From assembly GCA_000004985.1 (NCBI GenBank), contig GG738858.1: 64,000 nt of DNA; one strand, 5' to 3'. The DNA comes from Naegleria gruberi. Lineage: Eukaryota. The notes below the pieces were generated by a model. That model saw only the letters and a program-made list of their open reading frames with translations, was not told the origin of the DNA and searched no databases. A program made the position numbers and the translations under genes. Within the stretch, counting starts at the first letter, position 1. Each line of letters begins with the position of its first letter. This document shows positions 18,669 to 62,235 of the stretch, piece after piece.

Positions 18669-19125
18669 AGTTTTTGATATGAAAATAATTTCTAGAAAGA
18701 GGATGATGAAAAGGGTTGTTATTCTTGCTGCCACAGAACAATTTCCAAGTTGATGAGTTTGACCGTTGACAGCAATTTTTTTTTTAAAATTTTATTTTAA
18801 TTTTTTTAATAGAACGACAGAAAACTGACAACTGCAACAAAGAAGAGTGATGGTTTTCCAAAATGGAGTTGATAAGGGAAGTCGTTGCCAAATTGTATTC
18901 TTCAGTTACCACCTTTCGAATACAAAAGAATACCATTGGAAGAAACTTGTTTTATTAGAAACCTGCCGGCAGTGATAAAGACGTTGGGTGATAATGAATT
19001 TAATTTTATTGAATTTTATTGAATCAACAATTTCTATATTTCTAATGTTTTGGACATTCTATTTTCGATTTAACACTGAGGTTGATATTGTACTGATTGG
19101 TTCTTCATTTGGTCAAAGGATAAGA

Positions 19126-19196
19126 AGGGAGATAGTTCAGTGGTAGAACATGGGATTGTGGTTCCTAAGATCAGGGTTCGATTCCCTGTCTTCCTA
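19126..19196 (+). tRNA. trnH-GUG: tRNA-His (anticodon GUG)
   Basis: AGGGAGA TA GTTC AGTGGTA GAAC A TGGGA TTGTGGT TCCTA AGAT CAGGG TTCGATT CCCTG TCTTCCT A. It gives a cloverleaf with anticodon GUG. Confidence 0.75.
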
Positions 19197-19279
19197 CACC
19201 TTTTATTTTATTTTTTACCCAATAAGAATATCTGGTATTTTATAATTCTTGTTCGATTTTTTTAATAAGAACATCGTAA

Positions 19280-19351
19280 AGCAAATTGGCGCAGCGGAAG
19301 CGCGATGGGCTCATAACCCATAGGTCCTAGGATCGAAACCTAGATTTGCTA
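19280..19351 (+). tRNA. trnMi-CAU: initiator tRNA-Met (anticodon CAU)
   Basis: AGCAAAT TG GCGC AGCGGAA GCGC G ATGGG CTCATAA CCCAT AGGTC CTAGG ATCGAAA CCTAG ATTTGCT A. Eukaryotic initiator hallmarks are present: A1:U72, three G:C pairs in the anticodon stem, and an A-rich ATCGAAA T-loop. It is followed by a T6 run. Confidence 0.8.
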
Positions 19352-19539
19352 TGTCTTTTTTATTCCCCTTTCCATTAATTTTGGCAATTATACATTTATC
19401 CAAAATATTTCTTTTTTGATCAAAATCCAAGAAACGCGTACTGGATTCGGCTCATTCTACTTCAAGTTGACCACCTTGACATTCATACAAAAAATTAGCC
19501 ACAAATCACCACAAATTTTCCAATCTCATTCACAACATC

Positions 19540-22521
19540 ATGGGTTCAAGTGTTTCGGATTCTAGAAATGACAAGAGTGCACTTCAAAAAGCGTATCAAG
19601 AAGAAGCAAATGATGAAGAGGACGATGGTTCTGATCAATACCCTATTGATGAATTATCTAAAACTGCAGTTGATCAACAACAACTGGAAGGTGGCCGAAA
19701 CCTGTCGAATTATTTTTCTGAATTTGAAATTGTTTCTTCACAAAAATTCAAAAACAAAAAGCAGTACACTTTTCGATATAGGATTATTCAGAAAAGTGAT
19801 CAGATTGGGTGTCTAGGAAGTGCATTCAAGTGTACAGAAAGCATTGTTGGATTTTCACCAAATCGAGAACGAGTTGTGATTGTGAAAAAATTAAAATATT
19901 TACCAGATTTACATCATTCGATGGATTTGATTGGAAACATGTTGGAAGAAAGTTTGGAAATGCATTATTGGCATATGGGGAGAGTTTTAAATTGTTTCAA
20001 AATTGAGAATAATAATGCGCAGGATTGGTTTTTAGTGTCAGAATATTATCCTTTGGGAAATTTGACAGATTTGAGAAAGTCAATGAGTGAAGTTTCGATT
20101 TCTTTAATGTTACAACTTGTTTATCAAGCAGTAATGGCTATTAGATATTTAAATTCCAGAAATTTGGTTCATAGAAATATCAAAATGGAAAATATTCATG
20201 TCAGATATTTTACAAATGACAGATTGACAATTATTTTGGGAGATTTAGGAACGTTATGTCAATTGAATGGAGATTCTATGGAAATTCCGCTCACCAGTGT
20301 TTCAACCTTTGAAGATTCTGACAAACTCATAGACAATTCCATAATAGGAACTTTAGGATATCGAGATCCTTTATCCATTAACAAACGAAGAATTCACATC
20401 AAATCTGACATTTGGAGTTTGGGAATAACCTTACTGAAATTCCTATTCTTTACAGATCTCCCAGCAACTGTCAATTTGGAAGAAGATTCTCAAGAAAATA
20501 TTGAAGAATTATTGGATTATTTATTTTCTCCATTGGAAATCAAAGATCATGCTTGGGCTTCTGTAAAACAGTTGATTTCTGGCATGTTGAGGATTAATAT
20601 TTATGAAAGATATGGAACGAATAGAATTTTGACTGATATTTTTGATATTGAACAAGTTTCGAATGTCGAAAATTTGGATTCGAATTACTTTTTACTGAAA
20701 CAAGTATTCAAGAATCATGAATCAGTAATTTCGACTCTTTTATCTCAAAATGGAATGATGCTACCACACATGCCAGATTCTATTCGAAGGAATAAGAAAT
20801 TTGTAATGATTGCAATTCAGAACAATCCATTTTCATACGAATTCATATCTGAAACCTTAAAGAATGATTCTGAAATAATGATCAGCACTTATTTGAAAGA
20901 TAGCAGAACAAAATACTTATTTACAAGGAAATTTACTGAACAGGAGGAGAAACAATTAAAGATTCGAGCAATTCCACTTGAAAGAAACTTATCTGAAAGT
21001 GAACGAAACGATTTTACTTTCATTTCGAATCTAGTTACCAAGGATGGAAGATATTTGGCACTGGCATCACCAAAACTGAGAAGCAACTTTGAAATTGTCA
21101 AGAAAAGTCTACTTTCGAATGGTTTAGCCCTCGAATTTGTTTCCCCAGAATTGAGAAAGGTCAAGGAATTTATGGAAATTGCAATTGACCAAAATCCACT
21201 TTCTCTTGCCTTTGTTGATTATTCATACAAGAATAGCTTTGAGATTGTCAAGAAGGCAGTTCAGCAAAATGGACTAGCTCTGGAATTTGCATCAAATCAA
21301 CTCAAGCTTAATAAGGAAATTGTCAAAATTGCTGTCAGTCAAAATTGTAAGAGTTTGGCATTTGTTCCAAGTGCTCTGATTAGCAATGATCCAGAATTAT
21401 TATGTTCTCTCCTTTCTTATGATTCAGATTCTATAGAAGAATATGAAAAACATTGGATTGCGACATTTGACATTTTCAATTGGATTATTTCACAATTCAG
21501 AAACAATACCAAATCGACATTCTTCAAAAATTCAAACCTCCTAACAATGTATTGCATCTTGGAAGAGAACGACCTCATCCAAGTTGATCCTAAAATTCTA
21601 TTCGAAATGTATGTCGAATCTTCCAACAAGAAACAAATTTATTCACTTTACAAAATGGGAATTTTATATTTCCATGGAGAAGATTTAATGGGAATTGAGA
21701 GGAATTTGGAAATGGCAGTTCAATATTTTGAACAAGCAGCTCAACTGGGATTAATTGATGCCTACATGTCACTTTATTCAATATATTCGAGTGATGACCA
21801 AGATGTCAAAAAGGCAGTTCAGTATTTGACAAGTGCTGCAACGAAGGGAAATGCTCAAGCTCAATGGAATCTTTGCGAATTGTATGCAAAGGGAGAGGGC
21901 GTTCCAAAAAGTAGTGAACTGTCAATGAAATGGATGAAAAAATCAGCTCAGAATGGAAATGTTGAAGCACAGCTGTCACTTGCCAATTATTATGAACAGG
22001 ATGCCACTAAGGATGTTATACTAAGCTTTGAGTGGTGTCTGTTAGCTGCTGATCAAGGATTTCCCGAAGCACAATTTCAGTTAGGTGAAAAACTAATGAA
22101 TGGAATTGGATGTCAACAAAATGTGTCACTTGCCATTCAACATTTTGAAAAAGCAGTTAAAGAAGGACATGTCCTCTCAATGCTCAATCTCGGTCTCATT
22201 TATTTCCAATCATCAACTTTACAAAATCATGAAAAATCTTTAAAATTCCTTTTACTAGCTGCCGAAAATGGAAATATCGATGCTCAACACAATATTGGAT
22301 ACTTTTTCGCATCTAAGAATGAATTTGAGAAGGCCTTTACATGGTACATGAAATCTCATCTTGCCAATCATCCAAATTCATTCTCTGAAATTTCACAAAT
22401 GATTTTACGAAATGAATTGAAATTCAAAAAAGTTTCTGGATTTATTGCCAAGGAAGCAATGAATGGAAATGAACAAGCAATTAAATTATTGCAAGAATTG
22501 AAAGAAAGAGGTGAGGAATGA
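19540..22521 (+). CDS. N-myristoylated (MGSSVS) kinase-like protein with degenerate catalytic loop (HRN instead of HRD), DUF4116-like repeats and C-terminal Sel1-like repeats, 993 aa
   Basis: ATG at 19540. Kinase-fold motifs LVHRNIKMENIHV, LGDLGT and DIWSLGITL. Repeats of about 30 aa read ..EIVKKAVQQNGLALEFASNQLK... Sel1 motifs (GNAQAQWNLCELYAKGEGV; GNVEAQLSLANYYEQ). Confidence 0.65.
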   Translation: MGSSVSDSRNDKSALQKAYQEEANDEEDDGSDQYPIDELSKTAVDQQQLEGGRNLSNYFSEFEIVSSQKFKNKKQYTFRYRIIQKSDQIGCLGSAFKCTESIVGFSPNRERVVIVKKLKYLPDLHHSMDLIGNMLEESLEMHYWHMGRVLNCFKIENNNAQDWFLVSEYYPLGNLTDLRKSMSEVSISLMLQLVYQAVMAIRYLNSRNLVHRNIKMENIHVRYFTNDRLTIILGDLGTLCQLNGDSMEIPLTSVSTFEDSDKLIDNSIIGTLGYRDPLSINKRRIHIKSDIWSLGITLLKFLFFTDLPATVNLEEDSQENIEELLDYLFSPLEIKDHAWASVKQLISGMLRINIYERYGTNRILTDIFDIEQVSNVENLDSNYFLLKQVFKNHESVISTLLSQNGMMLPHMPDSIRRNKKFVMIAIQNNPFSYEFISETLKNDSEIMISTYLKDSRTKYLFTRKFTEQEEKQLKIRAIPLERNLSESERNDFTFISNLVTKDGRYLALASPKLRSNFEIVKKSLLSNGLALEFVSPELRKVKEFMEIAIDQNPLSLAFVDYSYKNSFEIVKKAVQQNGLALEFASNQLKLNKEIVKIAVSQNCKSLAFVPSALISNDPELLCSLLSYDSDSIEEYEKHWIATFDIFNWIISQFRNNTKSTFFKNSNLLTMYCILEENDLIQVDPKILFEMYVESSNKKQIYSLYKMGILYFHGEDLMGIERNLEMAVQYFEQAAQLGLIDAYMSLYSIYSSDDQDVKKAVQYLTSAATKGNAQAQWNLCELYAKGEGVPKSSELSMKWMKKSAQNGNVEAQLSLANYYEQDATKDVILSFEWCLLAADQGFPEAQFQLGEKLMNGIGCQQNVSLAIQHFEKAVKEGHVLSMLNLGLIYFQSSTLQNHEKSLKFLLLAAENGNIDAQHNIGYFFASKNEFEKAFTWYMKSHLANHPNSFSEISQMILRNELKFKKVSGFIAKEAMNGNEQAIKLLQELKERGEE

Positions 22522-22927: not shown

Positions 22928-25900
22928 ATGACTCGATTATTACTCACGACAGTTGTCATTTGTATTTCAATTTTGTTAGCCCTGACAGGATATATCAGTG
23001 CCGCGGTTACATGCAATGGTGTAGATCAGACAGATCCTTCAACCTGCAGTGGTCATGGTCTATGTAAAAGCAACAATAATTGCGCATGTCTTGACATGTC
23101 ACCTGCCAATACATTAATTTCACAAACTGGAGGATACAATGGCATTCCAACAACATTAAATACCTCACGAACGCTAACTTCATCAAATGGTCAATATCAA
23201 GCATCATTAGATCCATCAACAGGTCGTTTACAAGTCCAAGATGTCACCAACTCGACCATCGTTTATCAAAGTGCAACTTTATTATCAGCAGCTTTATTTG
23301 CACCTTTTGAATTAAGATTATTTGTACCTTCATCTACTACCTGTCAAATATCAATTTATGGAAATAATGTATTAGGTTTGACATTGACAGGTACAGTAAG
23401 TGCAATTTTGCCATGCAGATTGGTCATGAGAAATAATGGAGAATTAGTAATGTACAGTTCCGCTGGGTTTGTTTGGTGGACAACAAATCCATCACTGTCA
23501 ACTGGCACTGAAGATTTAATTTATCAAGGTGTCAATTGCGCTTCACCAACTTGTTATGGAATTTTGGCAGAATCTCCAAATGTTTGTTCTGGAAATGGAA
23601 CTTGCACCTTTACTAATTCATGTTCTTGTAAAAGTGGACATTTCGGAGATTTATGTGATGCTTTTAAATGTTTTGGAAATTTGGCAAATGACACGTTGAA
23701 TGTTTGTTCAGGAAATGGAAATTGCATTTCTCCAAATGTTTGTTCGTGTAATTCTGGATTTTATGGACCTAATTGTGATTTAATCAAGTGTTTTGATGTG
23801 CTCAGTAATGAAACATCGAGTGTTTGTTCTGGACATGGAATTTGTTCGAGTACTGACAATTGCACTTGTGCAAACGGTTATTTGGGGAGTAAATGTAATC
23901 AGTTCGAGTGCTTTGGAATTTCAAATTCAGTAACTTCAGGACTCCAATTGCCATGCTCTGGAAATGGAACATGTACTGGAATAGATCAGTGTGTATGTCA
24001 ATCTGGATTTATTGGAAATGAATGTGAAACATTTAAATGTTCTAATTTTCTCAAGAATGACACTTTGAATGTTTGCTCTGGTAATGGATCATGTATTGCT
24101 CCTAATCAGTGTTCATGTCAATCTGGATTTTTCGGTTCGACATGTGAAGCTTTCAAATGTGGAAATGCATTATTCAATTCGAGTTCAGTATGTTCTGGAA
24201 ATGGATTTTGTAATGCTCCAGATCAGTGCATTTGTAAGAATGGTTATTCTGGATCATTGTGTGATAAATTCACTTGCTTTGGAATTGCCAATGATTTAAC
24301 AAGTGGTGGTCCATTAGCAGTTTGTTCTGGAAATGGAACATGTTCTGCGTTGGACAAGTGCATTTGTAATTCTGGATTTTTGGGTGACAGCTGTGACACT
24401 TTCAAATGTTTTAACAAGTTGAAGAATGATAGTTTGGTTTGTTCTGGTAAGGGAAGTTGCATTCTTCCAGAAACTTGTTCATGTTCGTTGGGATATGAAG
24501 GATTGAATTGTGACGGTTTCAAATGTTTTAACAAATTGAAAAATGATAGTTCAGTATGTTCAGGAAATGGATTATGTACTGATATTAATCAATGCTCGTG
24601 TAAGAATAATTGGTTAGGTCTTGATTGTTCTGTCACTTCTTGCTTTAATTTACTGTCAAATGACACAACTGTTTGTTCTTCGAAAGGAAGTTGCGTTGGA
24701 TTTAATCAATGCTCATGTCAATCTGGATATTTTGGTAGTCTATGTGATGTTAAGAAATGCTTCTCCTACCTGTCAAATGAAACTTCACTTGTCTGTAATG
24801 GACAAGGAACATGTACTGATCTTGACACTTGTTCCTGTAACTCTGGATTCCTTTCGAATGACTGTAGTGTCAATACGAATCCATTTTCCATTTCTTTGAA
24901 CGTTTCTTCACTTTCCATTTATCAAGCTACTTCTTGGAATAGTGTGAAAATTTCCCTGTCAGAAGTTTTAAATGTCAATTTAATTAATTTCAATTGGTAT
25001 TGCTTGGATTGTGTCACCAGGACAAGTTCTAATCTCCAGAAGGGACTTGTGAGTTCTTCACAAATTTTACAATTTAGAACTTCAGATTTAGTGGCAGGAA
25101 CTTTTACATTTATTGCAAATGCAACATTTTCGAATATTTCACCATATCCAAAACGGGTTTCGAATAGTGTTTCATTTAAATTGACTGTATTGGATATTAA
25201 TGTTCCTACTTTGGATGTTTTTGGACTTCCTTCAGTAATTATTTCAAAAATTGATCAACCAATTTCTAGTATAGTTTCTAGCATGACTTTAAATCAAACT
25301 TTGATTCAAAGTTTTATTGGAAAGTGTTCGAATGTTAGCTGTTCAACGCAGGTCACTTATTCTTGGACTATTTCATCTGCCGATAATACATTCAAGGCAT
25401 CTTCTGATGGAATTACTAATATTCTCAACTTGGTTGATTCTACTATTACAATTTCACCTCCAATTCAATTGACCACAAATTTATTGTCACTACTCAATAG
25501 TACTTTGACATTTTCTTTGAGTATTGTCAATCCATTACTGAAATCATTAACTTCATTGATCCAAATCCCAATTGTCTCTCCAGCTTTACCACCAACAGTT
25601 AATATTCCTGGATGGACAAGTGACGTTTACGGAGCTAACACGACCATTTCAAATGTCATGAGAGTTAGCCCAAGTCAAGGTATTTCACTCACTAATTTAT
25701 TCACTATAACTATTGAATCATGGAGTGCTGATTCTAGACTCCTTCCTCTCAAGTATGCTGTTGGATTTTATGATAAAAAGACGAGTAAGCCAATTAGAGT
25801 AACTGAATATTCGAATCAAACCGAAATTTCAATTTATTTACCTTATATGAAGTCATCTAGTTCAAAGAGATCTATTACTGCTGATTTGGAGAGTGTTGAA

Positions 25901-28687
25901 TTGGTTGTGTTTATTATGGATGTGATTGGAAATATCGATTTCAGAAAGTCAGCAACTGTCTACCTGTCACCTTTTAGTGGAACAGCTACTCAATTGACAG
26001 AAAAGATTAATTCATTGACAGGATATGCAATTACTGTTGCCTCCTATGATCAATCCTTGTCATTATTGAGTAGTACAGTTAGTGATTTAACTCTCAGTCT
26101 GATTAAGAACATTACAATTGATCCAAAATTCCCAACAGCTGCTCTTAATAGTTTACAATCTTTGACAGCTGATGTCAATTCATTGACAAGAGAAATTGTT
26201 ATTGAGGTGAATAGCAAATTGAATGGATTTATTACATCTGTGAATGGCAGCTATGCTGATGATAAGAAGAATTACGGATTTGTCAAGAGCAAACTAGCAA
26301 ATTCTGATGTGACTTTGACAGTTTCTGTCAGTTCTAATTTATTGCAAAGTGTATTCGAAAGTGAAGGTACCAAGAATGTTGTCAATCAATTGGTTTCTAC
26401 TATTTTATTTGGAGAAATCGCTAACATGATTCAATCAAGTCAAAAAACACTTAGTTCAGTTTCGTATAGTTCCAATCTAATTGACTTTGCAGTTTCCAGC
26501 TTTATATTGTCCAATCAAGTGAAATCGAATCAAACTCAATCTATCCTTATGGGTAACTACACCAGTGTCTCTATGAATATTTCAAATATCATGAGTCAAT
26601 ATAATGCATTCTCAAAAGATTGTGGAATTTCTCTAATTGTCTATTCCAAGAATACTAACTTTGACAATTCTACTAACAAATTGAAACTTGTTTCAAGTGT
26701 TAACGATTTCAAGTTCAGCGTTGATTCATCTGTTGTGCCTCTCTCAGATTTGACTCAACCAATTATTCTTCAATTTGAGCTTGTGGACGAATTGACTACA
26801 ATTTTAGAATCTTTGAAAAATGAAACTCTGAATGTAACTCAAAATGATCCAACTCAATCCCTCTCAACCAATGAACAAAAGTATTTGTGTAAATATTGGG
26901 ACGAATCAAGTCAATTGTGGAGTTCTAAAGGATGTTCCTTCAAGAGTGTGAATTTACAATCCAAAACAATTGAATGTTCATGTGTTCACACAACCATGTT
27001 TACAACATTCATTGAACAGAACAGTACATTTATCAGTAATCTTAAAGATCAAGTATCAGCTCTCTATTCAGTCCAAATAGCTTTTGGCATCATCTATGCA
27101 AGTGTTGCTACTGTAATTTTAATTGGATTAATTGCATTCAGAAAGGAACAACCAGTTTCCTCCAGATTAATGACTCCATATTTTGGAATGGTTGCCTTGA
27201 TCGCAGAAAGTGTTTTGATTTACATTATTCAGAGAAGTATTTTGGCTGATCAATTGTTGAATTCTTCACCATCTGTATGGGAAACTGGTGATACAGCTGC
27301 TAATATTATTGCCAATGTAGTTGCTATCGTTGTCAATACTTTGAATTTGACAGCTATTTTGAGCTATGTCATTCAAGTGACAAGATTCCAATTAATGAAA
27401 TACTTGTATCAAATCTTGTCTTCCAGTAGAGGAAATGAACAAAAGAGTGAACATACAATTAATGTTATCAGATTTTTGACAGCTCCAAGTTTGTCAAATT
27501 CAATTCTTTCAGCATTTGCTGGTGTGAATGTAATTTATTGGTTATTGTGGGTAATTTTGAGAAGAACCAATGCAATTGAACCAGCCACCTATACTTACAT
27601 TGTTTCCATTTCGTATACAGTGTGCATTCTTGTATTCAGTGTCTTGATTACTATTGTGGCTGTTTTAGATTTTATTGGCTCTACAAAGAAACATTTGGAC
27701 ATGAATACAAAGAGAAGAACAGCTATGGATCACTTAGTTGAGAATCCAAGCTCTAGTTTCAAGAAGGATAAGAAGAAATTCGTTGGAAATCCAGCCAAAA
27801 TTTTCAGAGATTGGCTTATTACATTGGACGGTCCTCTCTACTTTAGAATGGAAATGATCTTGTACATTATTTGCTTTATTTTCTTAGTTTTGAATCAAGG
27901 TATTGGATTGAGTAGTTTACCATACAGATATGAAAGTGTTGATTCATTTAGAAAAGCTCTCCTTTCTGATGGAATTTCGTTTATCTTTGAAGTTTTATAT
28001 GTAGTGAGCTATATTTTCGTATTTGGTGGATATGCACTGATTATCACACTCAAATACAAGTATCAAAAGTGGAAATATCAACAAGCACTCAAGGCAGCAG
28101 CTACAGAACCTCAAAATGAGGAAATTTGGATTGATGAGGCAGTTGATGAAATTCTCTCATCCCAAGAAGGAACAAGTCTATTCGAAACTTTTTGTGTCAA
28201 GGAATTCTCATGTGAAAATCTCTATCTCTATCAAGATTTACATGCCAATAAGGAAATTATTGATGGAAACAATTTCAAGGACCTTCCAAGATTCATGTCC
28301 TTTGTTTTCCACAACTATGTCAAAGTGGGAGCTCCATCAGAAGTCAACCTACCTTCCAGTAGTAGAAACTCATTCCTATTCCTCTTCAGATCAGCACTCT
28401 CTCAAAAAGAAACCTTCTCCTCCAGCCAACAAATTAAATTGGATTCGAATCTGTTGCGAGATTTCGAAGCAGTAGAAAAGGAAATTCACACCGAAAATAT
28501 TCCAATTGTCGAGTTGAATGCAACAAATATTAAGGATTGCTTTGAAAATTTGGATAGAAATGTTTTGATTAATATTGGAGATACCTTCTCTCGATTTGTT
28601 TACACTCCGGAATATAAGATTTTTAAAAAGGCAAAGGAATTGCAAAATGCAATGATTCAAAAGGCAAATATTGTGTATGGATTGTAA
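22928..28687 (+). CDS. adhesion-GPCR-like giant receptor: signal peptide, bulb-type lectin, about 20 EGF-like repeats, Ser/Thr-rich stalk, GPS motif, 7TM, C-terminal RGS domain (1919 aa)
   Basis: ATG at 22928 with a hydrophobic leader. Lectin signature (CRLVMRNNGELVMYSS). Repeated C-x-C-x-x-G-[FY]-x-G-x-x-C EGF units. GPS consensus C..W......W...GC....(17)..C-S-C-V-H-T-T-M-F. Seven hydrophobic helices at about aa 1360-1660. RGS signature (FETFCVKEFSCENLYLYQDL). Single exon. Confidence 0.75.
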   Translation: MTRLLLTTVVICISILLALTGYISAAVTCNGVDQTDPSTCSGHGLCKSNNNCACLDMSPANTLISQTGGYNGIPTTLNTSRTLTSSNGQYQASLDPSTGRLQVQDVTNSTIVYQSATLLSAALFAPFELRLFVPSSTTCQISIYGNNVLGLTLTGTVSAILPCRLVMRNNGELVMYSSAGFVWWTTNPSLSTGTEDLIYQGVNCASPTCYGILAESPNVCSGNGTCTFTNSCSCKSGHFGDLCDAFKCFGNLANDTLNVCSGNGNCISPNVCSCNSGFYGPNCDLIKCFDVLSNETSSVCSGHGICSSTDNCTCANGYLGSKCNQFECFGISNSVTSGLQLPCSGNGTCTGIDQCVCQSGFIGNECETFKCSNFLKNDTLNVCSGNGSCIAPNQCSCQSGFFGSTCEAFKCGNALFNSSSVCSGNGFCNAPDQCICKNGYSGSLCDKFTCFGIANDLTSGGPLAVCSGNGTCSALDKCICNSGFLGDSCDTFKCFNKLKNDSLVCSGKGSCILPETCSCSLGYEGLNCDGFKCFNKLKNDSSVCSGNGLCTDINQCSCKNNWLGLDCSVTSCFNLLSNDTTVCSSKGSCVGFNQCSCQSGYFGSLCDVKKCFSYLSNETSLVCNGQGTCTDLDTCSCNSGFLSNDCSVNTNPFSISLNVSSLSIYQATSWNSVKISLSEVLNVNLINFNWYCLDCVTRTSSNLQKGLVSSSQILQFRTSDLVAGTFTFIANATFSNISPYPKRVSNSVSFKLTVLDINVPTLDVFGLPSVIISKIDQPISSIVSSMTLNQTLIQSFIGKCSNVSCSTQVTYSWTISSADNTFKASSDGITNILNLVDSTITISPPIQLTTNLLSLLNSTLTFSLSIVNPLLKSLTSLIQIPIVSPALPPTVNIPGWTSDVYGANTTISNVMRVSPSQGISLTNLFTITIESWSADSRLLPLKYAVGFYDKKTSKPIRVTEYSNQTEISIYLPYMKSSSSKRSITADLESVELVVFIMDVIGNIDFRKSATVYLSPFSGTATQLTEKINSLTGYAITVASYDQSLSLLSSTVSDLTLSLIKNITIDPKFPTAALNSLQSLTADVNSLTREIVIEVNSKLNGFITSVNGSYADDKKNYGFVKSKLANSDVTLTVSVSSNLLQSVFESEGTKNVVNQLVSTILFGEIANMIQSSQKTLSSVSYSSNLIDFAVSSFILSNQVKSNQTQSILMGNYTSVSMNISNIMSQYNAFSKDCGISLIVYSKNTNFDNSTNKLKLVSSVNDFKFSVDSSVVPLSDLTQPIILQFELVDELTTILESLKNETLNVTQNDPTQSLSTNEQKYLCKYWDESSQLWSSKGCSFKSVNLQSKTIECSCVHTTMFTTFIEQNSTFISNLKDQVSALYSVQIAFGIIYASVATVILIGLIAFRKEQPVSSRLMTPYFGMVALIAESVLIYIIQRSILADQLLNSSPSVWETGDTAANIIANVVAIVVNTLNLTAILSYVIQVTRFQLMKYLYQILSSSRGNEQKSEHTINVIRFLTAPSLSNSILSAFAGVNVIYWLLWVILRRTNAIEPATYTYIVSISYTVCILVFSVLITIVAVLDFIGSTKKHLDMNTKRRTAMDHLVENPSSSFKKDKKKFVGNPAKIFRDWLITLDGPLYFRMEMILYIICFIFLVLNQGIGLSSLPYRYESVDSFRKALLSDGISFIFEVLYVVSYIFVFGGYALIITLKYKYQKWKYQQALKAAATEPQNEEIWIDEAVDEILSSQEGTSLFETFCVKEFSCENLYLYQDLHANKEIIDGNNFKDLPRFMSFVFHNYVKVGAPSEVNLPSSSRNSFLFLFRSALSQKETFSSSQQIKLDSNLLRDFEAVEKEIHTENIPIVELNATNIKDCFENLDRNVLINIGDTFSRFVYTPEYKIFKKAKELQNAMIQKANIVYGL

Positions 28688-30580: not shown

Positions 30581-32059
30581 TTACAACACGAATGAAAGAC
30601 AAATGAAAAGCAAAGCAAAGACAAATGGCAAGCTAGTGGTAATGAAAGTTGCTTCACTTGCATAGAAAACCAAAGAAACTGAAACAGCAACTTTAGGTGA
30701 TGGTGAAGTCAAATTTCTACCAACAACTGGAAGTGTCAAGTTTGTAGGAATTTGAGGTTGACCAGTGACATCTAGACCAGAAAGAGTTGTCAATGCAGAA
30801 ACGTCAGCCATTCCAGCATCAGTCCAAGCTTTCTTATAACACTTAATCATATTAGCATATTGCTTTGAACACAACTTGGTAATGACAGTTGAATTGGCAT
30901 CAACAGGTTGATATGAAATAGTTGATGTCATGCCACTTGTCAATTCATCAACTCCATTATTATAGGCACAAGCATAAAAATCTTCTCTAAAACCATTACA
31001 TGGTTGAACACAAGTTCCATTGAATGGACTAGCACTAGACAAACCACCACATCCACATTTCAAATCAGATGAGCTAGGACATGCTTTGGCAGTTGAACAT
31101 GTGACAACTGTCGATGAACATTTAAGATTTTCACAATAATTATTGAAACAGTCATCATTCTTATCACATGCTTCACCATCAAGAAGATGCCATCTTCTAA
31201 TACACTTATTCTTAGCACATCTCATTTGAAGAATTGGCAATTTGTAACAATCTGAAGGAGTTTCACAAAATTCACCATAGACAGATGGCTTTTGACAGGT
31301 CTTGGCAGCACTATCAATATTTTCCTTTCTACAATACAATCCATCTGCACAAACAGTTGAAACTGGAAGTCCAGAACAATTTTGACCTAATTGTAAAATT
31401 GTTGGTTTGTAACAAACGTTACTGATACAAGTCAACCCAGAATTTTCTTTACAAAAAACACGAACGCCACCTGAAATTGTTTCACAAGGACCTCCTTCAT
31501 CGCTATTATATGCCATCTTGAGACAGGCGCCTTGATAACAGTAGAAACCTGTTGCACAATCGTTTACAATATTTGTTGTTTCGTTCAATGATTTTTCCAA
31601 GCAGGCACCACCTTCAACATTGACAACTGGCAGGACTTTGAAACTGACACATTGATTATTAACACAATTAGTGTAAGCAGAAGCACTTCCAAAACTACCA
31701 ACGCAATTTTCTCTATGAGTGCAATAATCACCTAAAATTCTAGTTCTACGATATTCACAAGTTTGAGTTCTGGCAGCACAACCCAACCAATTGGCTTGAC
31801 AAGCAGAAGAACTGCCTGCACAGGACATACCAACGTAATTTGGAAGGATAGTATTAGGAATTGAAATACAGGTACGATTTCCTGTAAAACTGAAACCATT
31901 AATTGAACCAGTTGGGCAAACGAGTGAGGAAGCTTTTGATGAGGCAGCATCAGCAGCTGTAATACCCGAGACATAGTTGGAGGTACATTGCTGGCCAACT
32001 ACTGTGGATAGCATCAGATAGAGAGATGCTAATGTGAAGAGGAGAAGGTATGGTTTCAT
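30581..32059 (-). CDS. secreted Cys-rich protein with C-terminal hydrophobic (GPI-anchor-like) tail, 492 aa
   Basis: ATG at 32059. N-terminal signal peptide (MKPYLLLFTLASLYLMLSTVVG), more than 60 Cys in EGF/knottin-like spacings, and a hydrophobic C-terminus. Confidence 0.5.
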   Translation of the reverse strand: MKPYLLLFTLASLYLMLSTVVGQQCTSNYVSGITAADAASSKASSLVCPTGSINGFSFTGNRTCISIPNTILPNYVGMSCAGSSSACQANWLGCAARTQTCEYRRTRILGDYCTHRENCVGSFGSASAYTNCVNNQCVSFKVLPVVNVEGGACLEKSLNETTNIVNDCATGFYCYQGACLKMAYNSDEGGPCETISGGVRVFCKENSGLTCISNVCYKPTILQLGQNCSGLPVSTVCADGLYCRKENIDSAAKTCQKPSVYGEFCETPSDCYKLPILQMRCAKNKCIRRWHLLDGEACDKNDDCFNNYCENLKCSSTVVTCSTAKACPSSSDLKCGCGGLSSASPFNGTCVQPCNGFREDFYACAYNNGVDELTSGMTSTISYQPVDANSTVITKLCSKQYANMIKCYKKAWTDAGMADVSALTTLSGLDVTGQPQIPTNLTLPVVGRNLTSPSPKVAVSVSLVFYASEATFITTSLPFVFALLFICLSFVL

Positions 32060-32443: not shown

Positions 32444-34072
32444 TTATTTTCTCTTTTTCTTTTGTTTAATTTCTTGTTTGAATTTCATAAATGGTTCTGC
32501 CATTGATTCGCAAACACTCTTTTGCAATTCATCAAACAAGTCGTCTTCTAAAATGCTAGAAGATGAGAATTCATCCAATCTTGTTTTAACTCGTTCTTGA
32601 AGAGCAGTGCTTGTTTTGAATGGTGTTTCTCCATTTACATCAATGAATTCAGTAAATATCTTGAAAGCAACTTCGTATTTGTTTCTTTCCAATTCCTCAA
32701 CTTTCTCAATTTCCTCAATATCGCTAATTTTCGTATTCTTGCTCTTTTGTTCAGCAACACCTCTCAAGTAGTGGGCTTCCTCACAGAGTTCCTTGTAAGA
32801 GTGGCAATTGTCCAACAAGGTAAATGAATCCAAACAATTTTCTCTATCACAGAAAGCTCTGAATAAAGCATTATACTTATCACTTCCAACAGTTTCCATT
32901 ATCATAATATGAGCAGCTTTTCGGAGTTTTCTTGTGCTTGTAACTTCAGTAGTCAATGCCATGGCAAAGATTAAAATAACTATTGGAACACTAACAATTA
33001 CACCAAACAAAACTAAACCCATGTTCACAGCGCTTGCCATCCTTAAATACTCTTTCTTCTCATTTGCAAGTTTGACAATTTCTTTTTGTACTTTGATTAA
33101 GAAAAGTTGGGTTATAGTATCTGCTGAATAGTATTGGAATGATTTTCTTTTTTCCCTTGCAGATATCATGTCTCCAATAGCCACATAATCCATAACTAGA
33201 TCATTCAAAGTAGTTATTTGCGTATTCAAATATTCGGATGGTTTCACAGTTCCATTAGGCAAAGTTAGTGCAAGCTCTACTAGGGTGGTATTGGCAAGGG
33301 CTCGCTTTATATAATATTCCCCAACCAGACTCTGGTTTCCAGTGGCTGCAGCTACTCTTACAGTACAGTCAATATCGTGATAGAGTTGCAAGTAGTCTGT
33401 TCTCTTGAGGAGCATATAGGTTTCCTTCTGGGCATCCAATTTGAAAGCATTTCCAACAATTACAGCCACAGCTATAAAAGCAGCAATATTGATAAGCATA
33501 CCAAACAGTGAGAGAATTCTGACAAGATTCAGTTCTATTATACCACAACATGTAGGAATACGAAATGTCACCGAAGAGACGGTAGACTTGCCCGACTTGG
33601 CTGTTGTCTTACTGAATATTGATTCAACTGTAGGTTTTTGTGGTTGAGCAAACGAGACTCTTTTATCACCTGGTGTTTGTGGAGTATTGTTTTGGGCTCT
33701 ACTCATTCTATATTGTTGTTGTTGTGGTTTAATTGAAGATAAGGTTAATGGTTTAGTGACAAATCTTCTAGCAAAGTGTACCACAATACTATCGGCATCA
33801 CTACAGGCATCGTCATCTTCGTCGTCTTCATCCTCAATTTTAGTTTGTTCCTCATTGTGAGTATTGACAGTGATACAAACTTTCTCTTGAGCTTGTTCTT
33901 CGTCAATCTTTTTCAAATCCTTTAGTTCAATAGATGTTGAAGTAGAAGGATTGTCTTGATGATTCTGAATGGTTTCAATTGTTTGTGATGGGGGTGTTGA
34001 AGATGGATGATCACCTTCAGGCGACGAAGTAGAAGATAACGAAGAAGACATTTTTTGTGTGTTGGTATTCAT
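32444..34072 (-). CDS. two-TM receptor-like RGS protein (S/T-rich N-term, TM1, ectodomain of about 150 aa, TM2, cytosolic RGS domain), 542 aa
   Basis: ATG at 34072. TM segments are LFGMLINIAAFIAVAVIV and LVLFGVIVSVPIVILIFAMAL. RGS-domain signature (FRAFCDRENCLDSFTLLD...KYEVAFKIFTEFI...LFDELQKSV). Confidence 0.65.
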   Translation of the reverse strand: MNTNTQKMSSSLSSTSSPEGDHPSSTPPSQTIETIQNHQDNPSTSTSIELKDLKKIDEEQAQEKVCITVNTHNEEQTKIEDEDDEDDDACSDADSIVVHFARRFVTKPLTLSSIKPQQQQYRMSRAQNNTPQTPGDKRVSFAQPQKPTVESIFSKTTAKSGKSTVSSVTFRIPTCCGIIELNLVRILSLFGMLINIAAFIAVAVIVGNAFKLDAQKETYMLLKRTDYLQLYHDIDCTVRVAAATGNQSLVGEYYIKRALANTTLVELALTLPNGTVKPSEYLNTQITTLNDLVMDYVAIGDMISAREKRKSFQYYSADTITQLFLIKVQKEIVKLANEKKEYLRMASAVNMGLVLFGVIVSVPIVILIFAMALTTEVTSTRKLRKAAHIMIMETVGSDKYNALFRAFCDRENCLDSFTLLDNCHSYKELCEEAHYLRGVAEQKSKNTKISDIEEIEKVEELERNKYEVAFKIFTEFIDVNGETPFKTSTALQERVKTRLDEFSSSSILEDDLFDELQKSVCESMAEPFMKFKQEIKQKKKRK

Positions 34073-34585
34073 CTATCTCCCACCTCCAAATGTCCCCTCT
34101 CTCTACGTAGTTAGATCCAAACATCACTCGGCATTGGGATTTGGTTTCCTTATATTGAATTTGCCTTTTTTAAACGTTTTGAGCTTAATTTTGTGAACCA
34201 TCCGTTCAACTAGCAAATCTCATATTTAGGAACTAGATGCTAATAACACAACAGGAAAGTGTTGCTCAAATAATATCACAAGATACGGTATACAGTAGAT
34301 TCTACTCGGAAAGACATTTGCTTTTCTTCTGCAGACTAACCGACATTTGTATTCAACCCACACTGTAGATAGAAATTATAATGAAAGTTAACCTAGTCTT
34401 CATCATGTATTAATTGTTAGGTTGTATAATAAGATGTGAAGATCATCAATTAAATTTTAATTCATGCAAAGATACGTGCCCAAATTGAGGCTTTGCAATT
34501 AACGGTTTTTTTAAGCAGCAAGAATTCACCCTCATTCATCTTGGCGCCTTTTTTTTAAAATTGTAATAAAACAAATTTTATTTAT

Positions 34586-37300
34586 TTAAAAGAAGAAGAA
34601 AATGATCATCATTGCAATCACCAAGTATGAGGCAGTGAAGTTGTGAATGGATGAGGTATGACTAAGGACAGGTTCTGGAGGAATTTCAACAGAGGAAACT
34701 TGCAAATTATATCCACTAATTAAGAGAGCAAAGTTTTGAGAACCAACATTCTTCTCCGATGATCTGATATTAATAATAATCGATGAGGATGAATTGGAGG
34801 TGTTTGGAGGAATGTTAATGGTGAGTGATTCGACATTGTTTCTATCATCAATTAGGGAGGAATCTTGAATGTTTCCATAGTTACATTGTTGATTACCGTA
34901 GCAGAGAGTATGAATTGGTGAGGAGGAGGAATCATCCTTGATGGAAACTGAGAGATCTAAATTGTTGATTAGCACTTTGGCTGAGTTGGTGGATGAGCTA
35001 ACAGGTGTACCTTTCAAATCAAACCAGGTGAGTGTAACTTTCAATGGATTGGAGCTTGCCAAATTATTGGTCAACTTCATTGTGATGGTAATGTTTGAGG
35101 CAACATTGATTTTCTGTCTATTGATTGTGAATAGATCTGGATTGGAATCCTTATCTGAAAACTTCATTGTATTGGCAATATTCACTCTACCGTAACCTGT
35201 GTACTTGTTTGGAGTTTTCTCTTTGGATAGATCACGATAATTGTTTTCGTTTGTGAAAACACCATCCAACTTGACTGTACCCATCAACTTCTCTCCAGAG
35301 TGAATAACAAAACCCTTTACAAGCATGCCACTCAATGTTTGATTTGGATTCTTATTAATCAAATCAAGGTTGACCAATCTTTGCTTGCTATTTTGAAGGA
35401 AGTATTCTCTAACCAGAGCAGAAACACCTGAGATAGCTGGACAGGCCATACTAGTTCCTGTCTTCTGAGTTAGCCCAGTTGAATCACAGAATGGAATATA
35501 ACTTCTAGCACTCCAAATTTTCACTCCAGGAGCTACAATGTCAGGCTTAAATCTATTATCAAATGTTGGACCTCTTGCTGAAAAATAGCCCAAATTGTCA
35601 TGATTGTAAAGTGTTGTATTGATATTTGGTTCATATCTGGTGTATTCATCAGATGTGGCATAGGCAGCACCAACTGAGATACAATTCTTGGCAGTAGATG
35701 GAGCTAGTTCAAAAATTGTTACAATTTACCAAGTGAACAATATACTTACAAATAACAGACTTTTCCTGTCCATAGTAACCACTATTACCAGCAGCAAAGA
35801 CAACTAACATTTCATCATTGGCATTGGTGAATTCATCAATTTGTGCAGAGAGTGTTTCATAAGTGTTACCAAGTTCACAACATCTTAAACCATATTGTTG
35901 AAGACAATACTCATCCTTCACTGGTTTGGAAAGATTGGATTTGGCTTCATAGCAATCACAATCAAATTGGCAATCTAAATTATTGGTATTTCCCCAACTG
36001 TTGCTGGAAATTCTTGCACCACTGGCATAAGCCCTAATCAAGTAAGATGTCATGTTGGAAACTGAGAAGAAAAGTGTAATACCAGAATCAATCATGTGAA
36101 TTTTAGCATCTTTGGCAATACCCATATCATTATCAATTCCTGAAGTTGAACTTGGTTGACCAGCAACTATTATTAAGGTAAAATAACAAAGAATGAAAAC
36201 AACAACTTACTAATTCCAGAACAGTGAGTACCATGACCATTGGCATCGTAAAAATCTCCTGTTGTACCTCTCTCGTAAAGTACAACCTTTCTATTTTTGG
36301 TATTCAAAGTAGAATAATCTTCATTTGGAGAAGAGAAGAAACAATGACTGTAATCAAGACCTGAATCAACAATATTCACAATCTCACCCTTTCCAGTTAC
36401 ACCATTATCCCAAGCAAATCTCGAAACATTAACCTTACGATTGTATTGAACAACATTATTGGAGCCGTACAATAATAATGATTGAGAAAATTCTCTTTCA
36501 ACATAGTCTACATCTTCATTATCTAAAATGTTGCTCATTAAGAAATCTGACATGTGACTCATCAAGGCACTCCTTTTACCATTGTTATTCCACAAGCTTG
36601 CATCTCCATCAACCAAGGAAATTGAAAACATTCTTCCTCTTTCTTCAATCAAAATTGAAGAACTTGCAAGAATTTCATTAATACTCTCAGAACTTCTTCT
36701 CACAGAACTTTCAATCAATTGAGTAGCAAACTCATGATTGAATTTGGTATTCATCTTGGAAAGGAAGAGTGGCAATTTTTCTTCAAATTCACTATTCATT
36801 ACAACTCTGAGTTTGGAAAATCTCAAACTGTCCATAGAAAATTGAGGAAACAAAATTCTCTTCTCATTGCTAACTCTTTCAATTCTGTAAATGTATTGTC
36901 TGTAGGAGGATTCGCTTTTAATTTCATCAATTCTTTGTAATGAGAGTCTAGTTCTAAACACTCTGTTATCTGTTCCACTGACAGTTTCTAATCTTTCGGT
37001 ACGAATGTTGCTGCTACTTGGACCGAAAACAATTCTATTTAATTGGTCTAAATGAAAATCGGAAAGGATGACATTATCATGAATTTTAATGTCTACAAGA
37101 AGTTTTGCATTATTCGAAAGTGTTCTTGCAGCTGATGATGATGGTTTATCCAACAAATTTAAACCATCCAATGTATGAGGAAATCTGCTATGAGCAACAA
37201 CTGAGAATGCCAAACCGAGGAGGAATAGGCATACCACCAATATTGTTCGCTGCATTATTTTTTTGTAAAGTATCGAATAATTGCATAGTAGACATGTCAT
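34586..37300 (-). CDS. subtilisin-like serine protease (peptidase S8) with C-terminal extension of about 330 aa and hydrophobic tail (874 aa), 3 exons: 37300-36211, 36166-35750, 35703-34586
   Basis: Catalytic triad D (VNIVDSGLD), H (HGTHCSGI|IAG across intron 1) and S (GTSMACP). SNSWG and AAGNSG motifs are present. Intron 1 is 36167-36210 (GTAAGT..AATAG, phase 1) and intron 2 is 35704-35749 (GTAAGT..AACTAG, phase 1). The signal-peptide-like MQRTILVVCLFLLGLAFS follows a possible upstream ATG. Confidence 0.75.
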
Positions 37301-37491
37301 TCAATAAGATTTATCACCAAGTTTAAATACCGAATCTATTGATGTTGGTCAAATTTCGAAAAGGAGATTAGATAACGTTCAAGGAGTAAGAAACTTAACA
37401 AAGAATGCAGATACCAATATAAAAATTATTCTAAACCTGAACCCGACATTCCATACATGGAAGTTGACAAAAGAATGAAAGTGGCGATAAG

Positions 37492-39006
37492 ATGATATGG
37501 AATTGCCGTCATGGAATCGGTATACCTTCAACATCTCAAGACCAATCCTTTAATCGTTCCCATTGTCATTCGTCTACTTTCGATATCTTTCAAAAAATGT
37601 CTCAAGACCATCACCACCATGCTTCTGAGCTACAAATAATCGTATCTCCAGAGACCACTACCAACACTCTAACAAGTGATTCCCACAATCCAATGATAAC
37701 GAGTCACCAAACTTCCAATACAGAATCATCAACTCAACCTCCACTTAAAAAGAAGACAACTTTCGCATCACGTGATGAACACATAGCTACAACCATAGCC
37801 ATTCAAGAAGATAAAACAGAAAGTACAAGTATTTTCAGTAAGACTACTAGTGCTCAATCACTTTCATCTCAAACTAAACTCAGAATTAAAACATGTTGTG
37901 GAATAATCAAGTTGAATACTATGAGATTATTGTCAGTGGTGGCCATGTTTGTCAATTCCATTGCTTTTATTGCTATTGCTGCTGTTGTAATTAATTCGTA
38001 TACGTTACAGACTTCGGTTGATACTGATCTGTTATTGAATAGAGGTGATTTAGTTTCGTTTACTGAAAAAACCGAATGTGCTGTTAAACTGACAGCTTAT
38101 GAAAATAGAACAGCCTATACAGAATCATATTATGTTAATTATCAGAATGTTACTAATCTACTTTCCACATTGAAACAAGTTTTACCTTCAAAGATTTATA
38201 CTCTGAATGGAGTTGACGTTCCAACTAAGAAAATGGATGATGAAATTCTGACACTTGTTGGCAATGGTTATGGAGGTCAAGCTCTGAATATTCTCAAGTC
38301 ATCTGAATATATCAGTCAACAAGTTGCTTACGATACTTTCTTACAATCCATGTTGGATTATTCGAATGATATGGCCGAATCTAAGAATTCTTATATTTTC
38401 ATTTCTAGTATTGTAAACTTGGTTTTGGTTGTAATTGCCTTGGTAGTTGTCGTGCCAACTGTCTTTGTTGTCTTTGCAATGGCCATCAAGAAGGAAGGAA
38501 ACACATCAAAAAAGTTAAAGAAGGCAACTGCATTCATGTTGTTAGACACAATGGAAGATGAAGTAATGAAATCAAAATTCAAAGAGTTTTGTAAGATGGA
38601 AGGTCACGGAATTGACCTTTTCCATTTTATTGAGAAAACTGTTAGCTATACTCATTTGTGTGAAAAACAAAATGAAATGATGGATAAACTTGCCAAGAAT
38701 AAGGGAGATCCAAAGGCAGTAAGAGATTTTGAAAAGGAAAAGTACATTCTTGCCTTTGAAATATTTGCCGAATATTTGGATGAAGATATTGGTGAGTATC
38801 CAATTCTTGTCAGTGGTGCATTGCATGAATGTTTGAAAAATAGAATTGACGACTTTTCAATTAATGAAGCAGAGACCTATCTCAAGGAAAATCTCTTTGA
38901 AGATATTCAAAAGGAAGTTGCAATGACTTCGCTCAATGATTTGCACTTCAAATTTAAACAATTCTTGATGGCTAGTAAGAAGCTTCAAGTCAAAACACAA
39001 CAATAA
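37492..39006 (+). CDS. two-TM receptor-like RGS protein, paralog of 32444-34072 in inverted orientation, 504 aa
   Basis: Same architecture: KTCCGIIKLNTMRLLSVVAMFVNSIAFIAIAAVVI (TM1), ectodomain, IFISSIVNLVLVVIALVVVVPTVFVVFAMAI (TM2), RGS-like C-terminus (KFKEFCKMEGHGIDLFHFIE...KYILAFEIFAEYL...LFEDIQKEV). The start could instead be the internal ATG (MSQDHHHH). Confidence 0.65.
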   Translation: MIWNCRHGIGIPSTSQDQSFNRSHCHSSTFDIFQKMSQDHHHHASELQIIVSPETTTNTLTSDSHNPMITSHQTSNTESSTQPPLKKKTTFASRDEHIATTIAIQEDKTESTSIFSKTTSAQSLSSQTKLRIKTCCGIIKLNTMRLLSVVAMFVNSIAFIAIAAVVINSYTLQTSVDTDLLLNRGDLVSFTEKTECAVKLTAYENRTAYTESYYVNYQNVTNLLSTLKQVLPSKIYTLNGVDVPTKKMDDEILTLVGNGYGGQALNILKSSEYISQQVAYDTFLQSMLDYSNDMAESKNSYIFISSIVNLVLVVIALVVVVPTVFVVFAMAIKKEGNTSKKLKKATAFMLLDTMEDEVMKSKFKEFCKMEGHGIDLFHFIEKTVSYTHLCEKQNEMMDKLAKNKGDPKAVRDFEKEKYILAFEIFAEYLDEDIGEYPILVSGALHECLKNRIDDFSINEAETYLKENLFEDIQKEVAMTSLNDLHFKFKQFLMASKKLQVKTQQ

Positions 39007-59871: not shown

Positions 59872-60175
59872 GGGTTTGGGTTTGGGTTGGGTTTGGGTTT
59901 GGGTTTGGGTTTGGGTTTGGGTTTGGGTTTGGGTTTGGGTTTGGGTTTGGGTTTGGGTTTGGGTTTGGGTTTGGGTTTGGGTTTGGGTTTGGGTTTGGGT
60001 TTGGGTTTGGGTTTGGGTTTGGGTTTGGGTTTGGGTTTGGGTTTGGGTTTGGGTTTGGGTTTGGGTTTGGGTTTGGGTTTGGGTTTGGGTTTGGGTTTGG
60101 GTTTGGGTTTGGGTTTGGGTTTGGGGTTGGGTTTGGGTTTGGGTTTGGGTTTGGGTTTGGGTTTGGGTTTGGGTT
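59872..60175 (+). repeat. (GGGTTT)n telomere-type tract (about 50 units), truncated by assembly gap
   Basis: Perfect gggttt hexamers with 2 variants. It runs into N at 60176. Confidence 0.85.
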
Positions 60176-61804: not shown

Positions 61805-62235
61805 TTTGGGTTTGTGGGGGGGTTGGGTTTGGGTTTGGGTTTGGGTTTGGGTTTGGGTTTGGGTTTGGGTTTGGGTTTGGGTTTGGGTTTGGGTTTGGGT
61901 TTGGGTTTGGGTTTGGGTTTGGGTTTGGGTTTGGGTTTGGGTTTGGGTTTGGGTTTGGGTTTGGGTTTGGGTTTGGGTTTGGGTTTGGGTTTGGGTTTGG
62001 GTTTGGGTTTGGGTTTGGGTTTGGGTTTGGGTTTGGGTTTGGGTTTGGGTTTGGGTTTGGGTTTGGGTTTGGGTTTGGGTTGGGTTTGGGTTTGGGTTTG
62101 GGTTTGGGTTTGGGTTTGGGTTTGGGTTTGGGTTTGGGTTTGGGTTTGGGTTTGGGTTTGGGTTTGGGTTTGGGTTTGGGTTTGGGTTTGGGTTTGGGTT
62201 TGGGTTTGGGTTTTGGGTTTGGGTCTGGGTTTGGA
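61805..62235 (+). repeat. (GGGTTT)n telomere-type tract (about 70 units), truncated by assembly gap
   Basis: Perfect hexamers after a degenerate start (gggtttgtgggggggttggg). Confidence 0.85.

Follow-up and report, generated by a model that had tools for sequence, protein, structure and literature searches.

The locus and its two receptor-like genes

The window analysed here, a 64-kb stretch of Naegleria gruberi nuclear DNA, contains at 32444-39006 two single-exon genes, here called A and B, each of which is predicted to encode a receptor-like protein with two transmembrane (TM) helices, an extracytosolic four-helix-bundle (4HB) sensor domain and a cytosolic RGS domain, while a gene for a subtilase of the peptidase S8 family (S8) lies between them (Table 1). 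On the evidence set out below it is reasonably probable that A and B are ancient paralogs within a receptor-like family of Naegleria and Willaertia, built from a serine/threonine-rich (S/T) tail, a Cys-Cys hairpin, TM1, a four-helix-bundle sensor, TM2 and an RGS domain.

The intronless open reading frame (ORF) of A comprises 542 amino acids (aa) and is 100% identical to P0001, 'RGS-domain-containing protein [Naegleria gruberi]', with an NCBI model that starts at Met8 and therefore gives 535 aa, and the equally intronless ORF of B comprises 504 aa and is 100% identical to P0006, which corresponds to NAEGRDRAFT_57561. The product of the S8 gene possesses a signal peptide, a hydrophobic C-terminus and the usual Asp/His/Ser motifs, and the 5' end of this gene points toward B. 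The resulting order is A(-), S8(-), B(+), in which A and S8 are arranged head-to-tail and S8 and B head-to-head, the 191 bp between the latter two being presumably a bidirectional promoter.

At the protein level, A and B share 32% identity across 459 aa (BLASTP, E 2e-51), and their similarity remains significant when the ectodomain (E 3e-7) or the RGS region (E 4e-23, in an alignment covering the whole domain) is compared on its own, so that the paralogy proposed in an initial annotation of this DNA applies to both the sensor and the output part of the two proteins. No third member of the family was found when the window was searched for one.

Table 1. Coordinates of genes and protein segments between A and B in the 64-kb window
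Feature	Position	Strand	Basis
Gene A, 2TM-4HB-RGS receptor-like protein, single exon	32444..34072	-	ORF and identity to P0001
A residues 1-166, cytosolic S/T-rich N-terminal region, poorly conserved	33575..34072	-	Composition, alignment
A residues 167-183, juxtamembrane motif FRIPTCCGIIELN	33524..33574	-	Alignment and model
A TM1, residues ~184-208	33449..33523	-	Kyte-Doolittle maximum 2.56; helix in model
A extracytosolic four-helix-bundle sensor domain, residues ~209-348, 140 aa	33029..33448	-	Model, Foldseek, hhalign
A TM2, residues ~349-372	32957..33028	-	Kyte-Doolittle maximum 2.99; within continuous model helix
A cytosolic RGS domain, residues 373-542	32447..32956	-	Pfam PF00615, hhalign to RGS4
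Subtilase (peptidase S8) gene, 874 aa, three exons	34586..37300	-	Pfam S8 in all three ORF pieces
S8 exons	36211-37300, 35750-36166, 34586-35703	-	Splice sites read off sequence
S8 introns	36167-36210, 35704-35749	-	Short, GT..AG
Divergent intergenic region between S8 and B, 191 bp	37301..37491		5' ends of both neighbours
Gene B, 2TM-4HB-RGS receptor-like protein, single exon	37492..39006	+	ORF and identity to P0006
B residues 127-168, LRIKTCCGIIKLN hairpin motif, then TM1 (~145-168)	37870..37995	+	Hydropathy, alignment, model
B extracytosolic four-helix-bundle sensor domain, residues ~169-304, 136 aa	37996..38403	+	
B TM2, residues ~305-329	38404..38478	+	Hydropathy; within 85-residue model helix
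B cytosolic RGS-fold domain, residues 330-504, no Pfam detection	38479..39003	+	

Membrane architecture and the juxtamembrane hairpin

Kyte-Doolittle profiles revealed two strong hydrophobic segments in each protein at the positions given in Table 1, and both segments of A and of B are helical in the AlphaFold models, in agreement with the two TM helices per protein that had been assigned initially. The N-terminus, described in the same annotation as S/T-rich, indeed contains 26% serine plus threonine in A and 33% in B as compared to 13% in the remainder of each protein. The extracytosolic domain that it had placed between the TM helices is likewise present, at a size of about 136-140 aa rather than the proposed 150-170 aa.

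The topology was further assessed over 69 family members, in which lysine plus arginine in the TM flanks amount to 4.9 on the cytosolic side versus 2.5 on the ectodomain side, and in which the frequency of N-x-S/T sequons per 100 aa reaches 2.56 in the ectodomain versus a shuffle expectation of 1.35, while the C-terminal part shows 0.98 versus 0.89. This positive-inside bias, together with a roughly twofold sequon enrichment that is confined to the loop, supports the predicted N-in/C-in orientation, with both termini cytosolic and the loop extracytosolic. The ectodomain of A itself contains three such sequons.

The N-terminal region is disordered and poorly conserved, with 19-47% identity between relatives, and short motifs such as ACSDADSIVVHF and SIFSKTT are kept among A-type orthologues; this S/T-rich tail is a plausible candidate for a phosphoregulatory region. 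Directly ahead of TM1, the FRIPTCCGIIELN motif is modelled as a beta-hairpin (model strands 3-8 and 11-16) with an invariant Cys-Cys pair at its turn, and C175, C176, L181 and N182 (numbering of A) are invariant in the alignment, the cysteines representing a plausible candidate palmitoylation site. The hairpin and the TM helices are the most conserved parts of these proteins (50-85% identity, above the RGS domain), and the hairpin plus TM1 constitute the single most conserved region, a degree of conservation that is unusual for a mere anchor. On the cytosolic side, the models contain one helix of about 85 residues that extends from bundle helix 4 via TM2 into the first RGS helix (model residues 146-230 in A and 145-229 in B), and neither model shows a HAMP domain or any other linker between TM2 and the RGS domain.

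The ectodomain is related to a bacterial sensor domain

In the models of both proteins, the region between the TM helices forms an antiparallel four-helix bundle, helices 1 and 4 of which run on into TM1 and TM2. Foldseek matched the ectodomain to the sensor domains of MCP2201, PcaY and HK9, with TM-scores of 0.67-0.76 against the MCP2201 ligand-binding domain and the HK9 sensor. Foldseek matches to G-protein-coupled receptors were discarded, being artefacts of their BRIL/cytochrome b562 and lysozyme fusion partners.

Relationships at the sequence level were explored with a profile of the trimmed family, which was scored against 1.84 billion representative proteins and produced 526 matches at E<=1e-3. 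From P0087 on, these matches are limited to profile positions ~44-210, corresponding to the ectodomain and its TM helices, and such ectodomain-only relatives derive from bacterial genomes and metagenomes, for example Candidatus Thiodiazotropha. Among the bacterial matches (E 1e-16 to 1e-7) are a chemoreceptor and a SpoIIE protein besides histidine kinases and GGDEF/EAL proteins, and the domains found in the ectodomain-only relatives include HisKA/HATPase_c, PAS, receiver, GGDEF, EAL, MCPsignal or SpoIIE; HisKA and HATPase_c occur in 25-27 of the 58 bacterial relatives examined, and a Pfam scan detected neither of them in A, B or the eukaryotic family. When 68 eukaryotic and 25 bacterial ectodomains were compared by hhalign, with the TM cores cut from the input to exclude signal from hydrophobic helices, they aligned over 132 columns with a probability of 99.1% and an E value of 5.7e-19, and motifs common to both sets include AAxTG...Y...LP and G..xxA..lL.S.eY.

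These sequence comparisons demonstrate homology between the ectodomain and a periplasmic sensor domain, itself unannotated, that occurs in bacterial signalling proteins. The initial annotation had noted that the two proteins have the same topology as bacterial periplasmic-sensor kinases but use RGS as their output, and the resemblance has proved to reach beyond topology to sequence-level homology and a shared four-helix-bundle fold; bacteria are the probable source of the sensor module. None of the known families PF12729 (4HB_MCP_1), PF02203 (TarH) and PF05227 (CHASE3) was matched by A, B or the family at E<=10, and one bacterial relative showed sub-threshold similarity to CHASE3 (E 0.008) and 4HB_MCP_1 (E 0.23).

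As a separate observation on the bacterial relatives, 26 of the 51 examined (e.g. P0087 and P0094) carry a tandem pair of sensor domains between their TM helices, within a periplasmic region of about 270 aa.

The RGS domain and its Gα-contact residues

Both proteins possess an all-helical RGS fold in the cytosolic C-terminal position where the initial annotation had located it. In A, Pfam PF00615 is matched at 26.6-29.4 bits (cut-off 23.9) and the domain aligns to RGS4 by hhalign; B gives no Pfam RGS match even as an isolated C-terminal fragment, and it aligns to A over the whole domain, as mentioned above. A B-type orthologue, P0007, scores an E value of 0.26 only against Pfam RGS. The best structural match of B is the RGS domain of SNX13, and the other close ones are RGS-homology domains, including those of axin and GRK5, with non-canonical surfaces.

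The residues through which RGS4 contacts Gα are only partly retained. The equivalents of E87, N88, N128, D163 and R167 are D, S, K, E and K in A and D, L, L, N and K in B, so that the two asparagines correspond to S416 and K486 in A and to two leucines in B. Neither asparagine is present in any of the eight sequences of the A/B clade, in which the N128 position is occupied by K, P, T, L or V and the N88 position by S, Y, K, Q, L, V or I, while other contacts are kept or conservatively replaced (E83 by E, E87 by D or E, R167 by K or R). In the wider family, on the other hand, both asparagines are kept in 34 of 73 members and all seven scored contacts in 27 of the 73, NAEGRDRAFT_78455 being an example of a canonical member.

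Mutagenesis of RGS4 and RGS16 has established that Asn128 makes contact with both the catalytic Gln and the switch regions of Gα, and that only Ser is tolerated well in its place. The loss of both N88 and N128 throughout the A/B clade thus renders classical GTPase-activating protein (GAP) activity doubtful for A and B, whose sequences lack the contact-residue set of a canonical GAP-active (R4-like) RGS domain. The RGS region has not degenerated, since it is 51-60% identical among orthologues, with many invariant residues, which indicates that the domain is not decaying. Taking into account the loss of the asparagines, the canonical set in about half of the family and the SNX13 match of B, a non-canonical RGS-homology surface is favoured for A and B, which would bind a partner or act as a scaffold, GAP catalysis being weak or absent.

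A different and rather unlikely view is that A and B retain full activity as classical receptor GAPs and act on matching divergent Gα subunits of Naegleria, with membrane tethering offsetting a low affinity. The constraint on the RGS region and the retained or conservatively replaced equivalents of E83, E87 and R167 would be in keeping with this view, yet it has to account for the replacement of N88 and N128 in every A/B-clade orthologue, for the narrow tolerance at N128, for the failure of Pfam to recognise B and for the structural proximity of B to SNX13 and other RGS-homology domains. The large lineage-specific repertoire of Gα subunits in Naegleria (PMC3971589) and the variation of RGS selectivity among them (PMC9283941) would also be in keeping with it.

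The wider family

In addition to A and B, 71 further full-length representatives (clusters at 50% identity) cover the whole family profile, and exactly two TM segments were found in 69 of the 73 family sequences examined, with a median loop of 134 aa. All 19 source-named members examined belong to N. gruberi, N. fowleri, N. lovaniensis or Willaertia magna, and the family is therefore restricted, among named members, to Naegleria species and W. magna. At least 12 distinct N. gruberi loci could be identified by name, and the true count in this species is probably several dozen. Within the family, the greatest diversification is seen in the ectodomain.

Expansion appears to have followed more than one route. 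A second A-type copy of N. gruberi, NAEGRDRAFT_61826 (P0183), is located on another contig of 1.0 Mb, and its cluster representative, P0002, is 51-58% identical to A, while two other family members, FDP41_010370 and FDP41_010371, are adjacent in N. fowleri; the dispersed copy and the adjacent pair indicate that both tandem and dispersed duplication have expanded the family.

One member bears the official name 'RGS and transmembrane domain-containing protein' and a truncated N. fowleri B orthologue carries the UniRef label 'Chemotaxis methyl-accepting recept...', from which it follows that automated pipelines have touched both halves of these proteins. The B orthologue on N. fowleri contig VFQX01000058.1 (L001) is cut by its gene model into a sensor part at 18987-19949 (320 aa, FDP41_007217, the entry with this UniRef label) and a separate gene at 19966-20553 (195 aa), which is probably a gene-model error; the protein is whole in another annotation (P0008, 521 aa).

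Previous work has counted 229 RGS proteins in N. gruberi (PMC3971589) and, in N. fowleri, 28 RGS proteins with seven TM helices (7TM-RGS) plus 79 other RGS proteins (Bosch et al. 2022, PMC9283941). The literature searched, which treats 7TM-RGS proteins and overall counts, contains no description of a two-TM four-helix-bundle RGS receptor, and this receptor class is apparently undescribed, although an earlier description is possible.

History of the A/B pair

In a neighbour-joining tree of 70 members, the A-type and B-type clades are sisters (bootstrap 91.5%). The A-type clade comprises A, NAEGRDRAFT_61826, the N. lovaniensis and N. fowleri orthologues and one metagenomic sequence, and the B-type clade comprises B and its N. 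lovaniensis and N. fowleri orthologues. The presence of both types in N. gruberi, N. fowleri and N. lovaniensis implies that the duplication is older than the separation of these three species, and the sister relationship, together with the linkage of A and B in N. gruberi and N. fowleri, makes an old local duplication plausible.

The arrangement of the genes differs between species. In N. fowleri, two unrelated genes separate A(+) from S8(-), which is followed by B(+), so that A and B share a strand, and in N. lovaniensis S8(-) and B(+) are head-to-head while A is found on another contig. The inverted layout seen here is consequently one of several later arrangements. What is conserved in all three Naegleria species is the divergent S8-B pair (N. 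gruberi 34586-37491; L001 15201-19949; L003 6218-11689), the position and orientation of A being variable, and this pairing suggests co-regulation, a shared bidirectional promoter or a functional link.

The initial annotation had interpreted the locus as an inverted local duplication around the subtilase, with a head-to-head and tail-to-tail arrangement. Local duplication remains plausible in the light of the sister clades and their linkage, whereas the event was ancient and its inversion finds no support in synteny; nor is there a tail-to-tail junction, because the gene order is A(-), S8(-), B(+) with the subtilase on the minus strand. The two intergenic regions flanking the subtilase (34073-34585 and 37301-37491), which had been put forward for comparison, show no significant DNA similarity. 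More generally, repeat and BLASTN searches revealed no significant nucleotide similarity between A and B in coding DNA, intergenic regions or outer flanks, and nothing therefore points to a recent inverted duplication. That the subtilase marks the centre of a recent inverted segmental duplication, or that the pair is an assembly artefact, is accordingly very improbable: A and B do point apart with 3.4 kb between them, and their clades are the nearest to each other in the family tree, but a protein identity of just 32%, the dissimilar coding, intergenic and flanking DNA and the distinct A-type and B-type orthologues in N. fowleri and N. lovaniensis speak against it, as do the location of A and B on the same strand in the former species and on different contigs in the latter and the fact that the subtilase, because A and S8 are head-to-tail, is off any symmetry centre.

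Comparison with known systems

A and B resemble the 7TM-RGS receptor GAPs (Arabidopsis AtRGS1 and the 28 proteins of N. fowleri, PMC9283941) in being integral membrane proteins with a C-terminal cytosolic RGS domain, in residing in hosts whose Gα is at least partly self-activating and in the proposed logic by which an outside cue would control the deactivation, rather than the activation, of Gα. They differ from these receptors in having two TM helices instead of seven, in using a discrete four-helix bundle of bacterial type as sensor where 7TM-RGS proteins have a heptahelical core or an EGF/lectin N-terminus, in the unbroken helix from TM2 to the RGS domain and in the missing asparagines at N88 and N128.

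An example of a 7TM-RGS protein with EGF repeats is encoded in the same window, 4 kb away. The ORF at 22928-28687 (+), of 1919 aa, contains a signal peptide, many EGF/teneurin-type EGF repeats and seven TM segments by hydropathy (aa 1376-1710), and ends in an RGS domain whose SCENL and EVNL motifs are canonical. It belongs to the 7TM-RGS receptors known from work on N. fowleri and brings the number of receptor-type RGS genes within 16 kb to three.

With bacterial 4HB sensors (Tar/Tsr and MCP2201-type chemoreceptors; TorS, NarX/NarQ, QseE and HK9-type histidine kinases), A and B share the order TM1, bundle, TM2 and the continuity of helix 4 with TM2, the relationship being one of sequence homology to one uncharacterised bacterial subfamily and of fold-level likeness to the solved examples. 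Their output is a eukaryotic RGS domain, whereas the bacterial sensors possess HAMP together with an output of the kinase, GGDEF or MCP signalling type; the HAMP domain is missing from A and B, and their long cytosolic N-terminal tail and Cys-Cys hairpin have no counterpart in the bacterial sensors.

Finally, the RGS-PX sorting nexins SNX13, SNX14 and SNX25 also carry an RGS-homology domain behind two TM helices, with non-canonical Gα contacts, but their TM helices form a short hairpin without a folded lumenal domain, in contrast to the folded loop domain of A and B, and they carry PXA, PX and PXC domains, of which no Pfam matches were obtained in A and B at E<=1 to 10. By analogy with these proteins, the TM helices and loop of A and B could be conceived as an anchor or organelle-lumen spacer that senses no ligand and keeps a constitutive RGS domain at an internal membrane. 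Such a role is improbable in view of a loop that forms a folded and conserved four-helix bundle of 136-140 aa, homologous to bacterial sensor domains and enriched in N-glycosylation sequons, of TM helices conserved above the RGS domain, of the absent PXA, PX and PXC domains and of an ectodomain that is the most diversified part of the family, as expected of ligand diversification; what speaks for it is that the SNX13 RGS domain is the top structural match of B and that no ligand-binding motif can be named, the bacterial relatives being uncharacterised.

A proposed mechanism

It has been demonstrated that several Gα subunits of N. fowleri are self-activating and that the RGS domains of 7TM-RGS proteins speed up their GTPase (PMC9283941). 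By analogy with these receptor GAPs, whose targets in plants are likewise self-activating Gα subunits, the family studied here may represent their two-helix counterpart. The four-helix bundle would bind an extracellular ligand, probably as a dimer like the bacterial 4HB receptors, and ligand binding would cause a piston movement or rotation of TM2, which would travel along the continuous helix and alter the presentation of the tethered RGS domain to lipid-anchored Gα-GTP at the membrane, thereby regulating it. The receptor signalling outlined here is inferred from these analogies. Carried a step further, and only tentatively, Naegleria and Willaertia might possess a class of chimeric one-component-style receptors in which a bacterial-derived module of TM1, four-helix bundle and TM2 drives a eukaryotic RGS domain directly by way of the continuous helix, and in which the RGS domain of A and B would have turned from a GAP into a non-catalytic, Gα-binding or effector-like output.

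Several considerations weigh against this interpretation. The loss of N88 and N128 argues against a simple receptor-GAP view of both A and B. The TM helices were assigned from hydropathy and AlphaFold only, the model of A was built from only 9 sequences and has a pTM of 0.43, and the relative orientation of domains in the monomer models is unreliable. No significant Pfam family was found for the ectodomain of A, B, the family or four bacterial relatives (E<=10), and the ectodomain can thus not be named from Pfam; PDB searches with the family and bacterial-ectodomain profiles likewise returned only chance or T4-lysozyme-fusion matches. In addition, the profile underlying the tree was built from A/B-type sequences, which may have biased the alignment, and the bacterial origin of the sensor is deduced from its distribution and not from a rooted phylogeny.

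Other features of the window

Directly beside A, at 30581-32059 (-), a Cys-rich protein of 492 aa is encoded, with a signal peptide, a hydrophobic C-terminus and no Pfam match, which is probably a secreted or glycosylphosphatidylinositol-anchored surface protein. Towards the end of the window, hexamer arrays occur at 59871-60175 ((TGGGTT) x51), 61805-62234 ((TTTGGG) x72) and 63800-64000 ((GGGTTT) x33), the last of which continues past the window end. These arrays look telomere-like or subtelomeric and give rise to long but spurious ORFs in several frames, and the region that contains them is strongly GC-skewed, with a GC content of 18-30%.

Implications for G-protein signalling in Naegleria

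It has been proposed that self-activating Gα in plants and many protists is controlled from upstream by receptor-type RGS proteins and, to our knowledge, the way in which the membrane part communicates with the RGS domain is not understood in any of them, even in AtRGS1. Transmembrane signalling by 4HB sensors through piston movement or rotation of TM2 is, in turn, well studied in bacteria. In this regard, the family described here offers a simpler and more tractable design, consisting of a discrete four-helix sensor that is expressible in soluble form and a rigid helical connection to the RGS domain, a design that would permit ligand screens on isolated ectodomains and the construction of chimeras with Tar or EnvZ. 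Moreover, the occurrence of canonical and asparagine-less RGS versions in one family provides a natural experiment on GAP versus non-GAP outputs.

Receptor-type RGS proteins as such are known, and what appears to be new is their construction on a bacterial-type four-helix-bundle sensor in place of a 7TM core. If the interpretation is true, the family would clearly illustrate how eukaryotic G-protein signalling can recruit a sensor module from bacteria, heterotrimeric G-protein signalling in Naegleria and Willaertia would be gated by bacterial-style ligand sensors at the step of Gα deactivation, and candidate surface receptors would be added in a genus that includes the pathogen N. fowleri.

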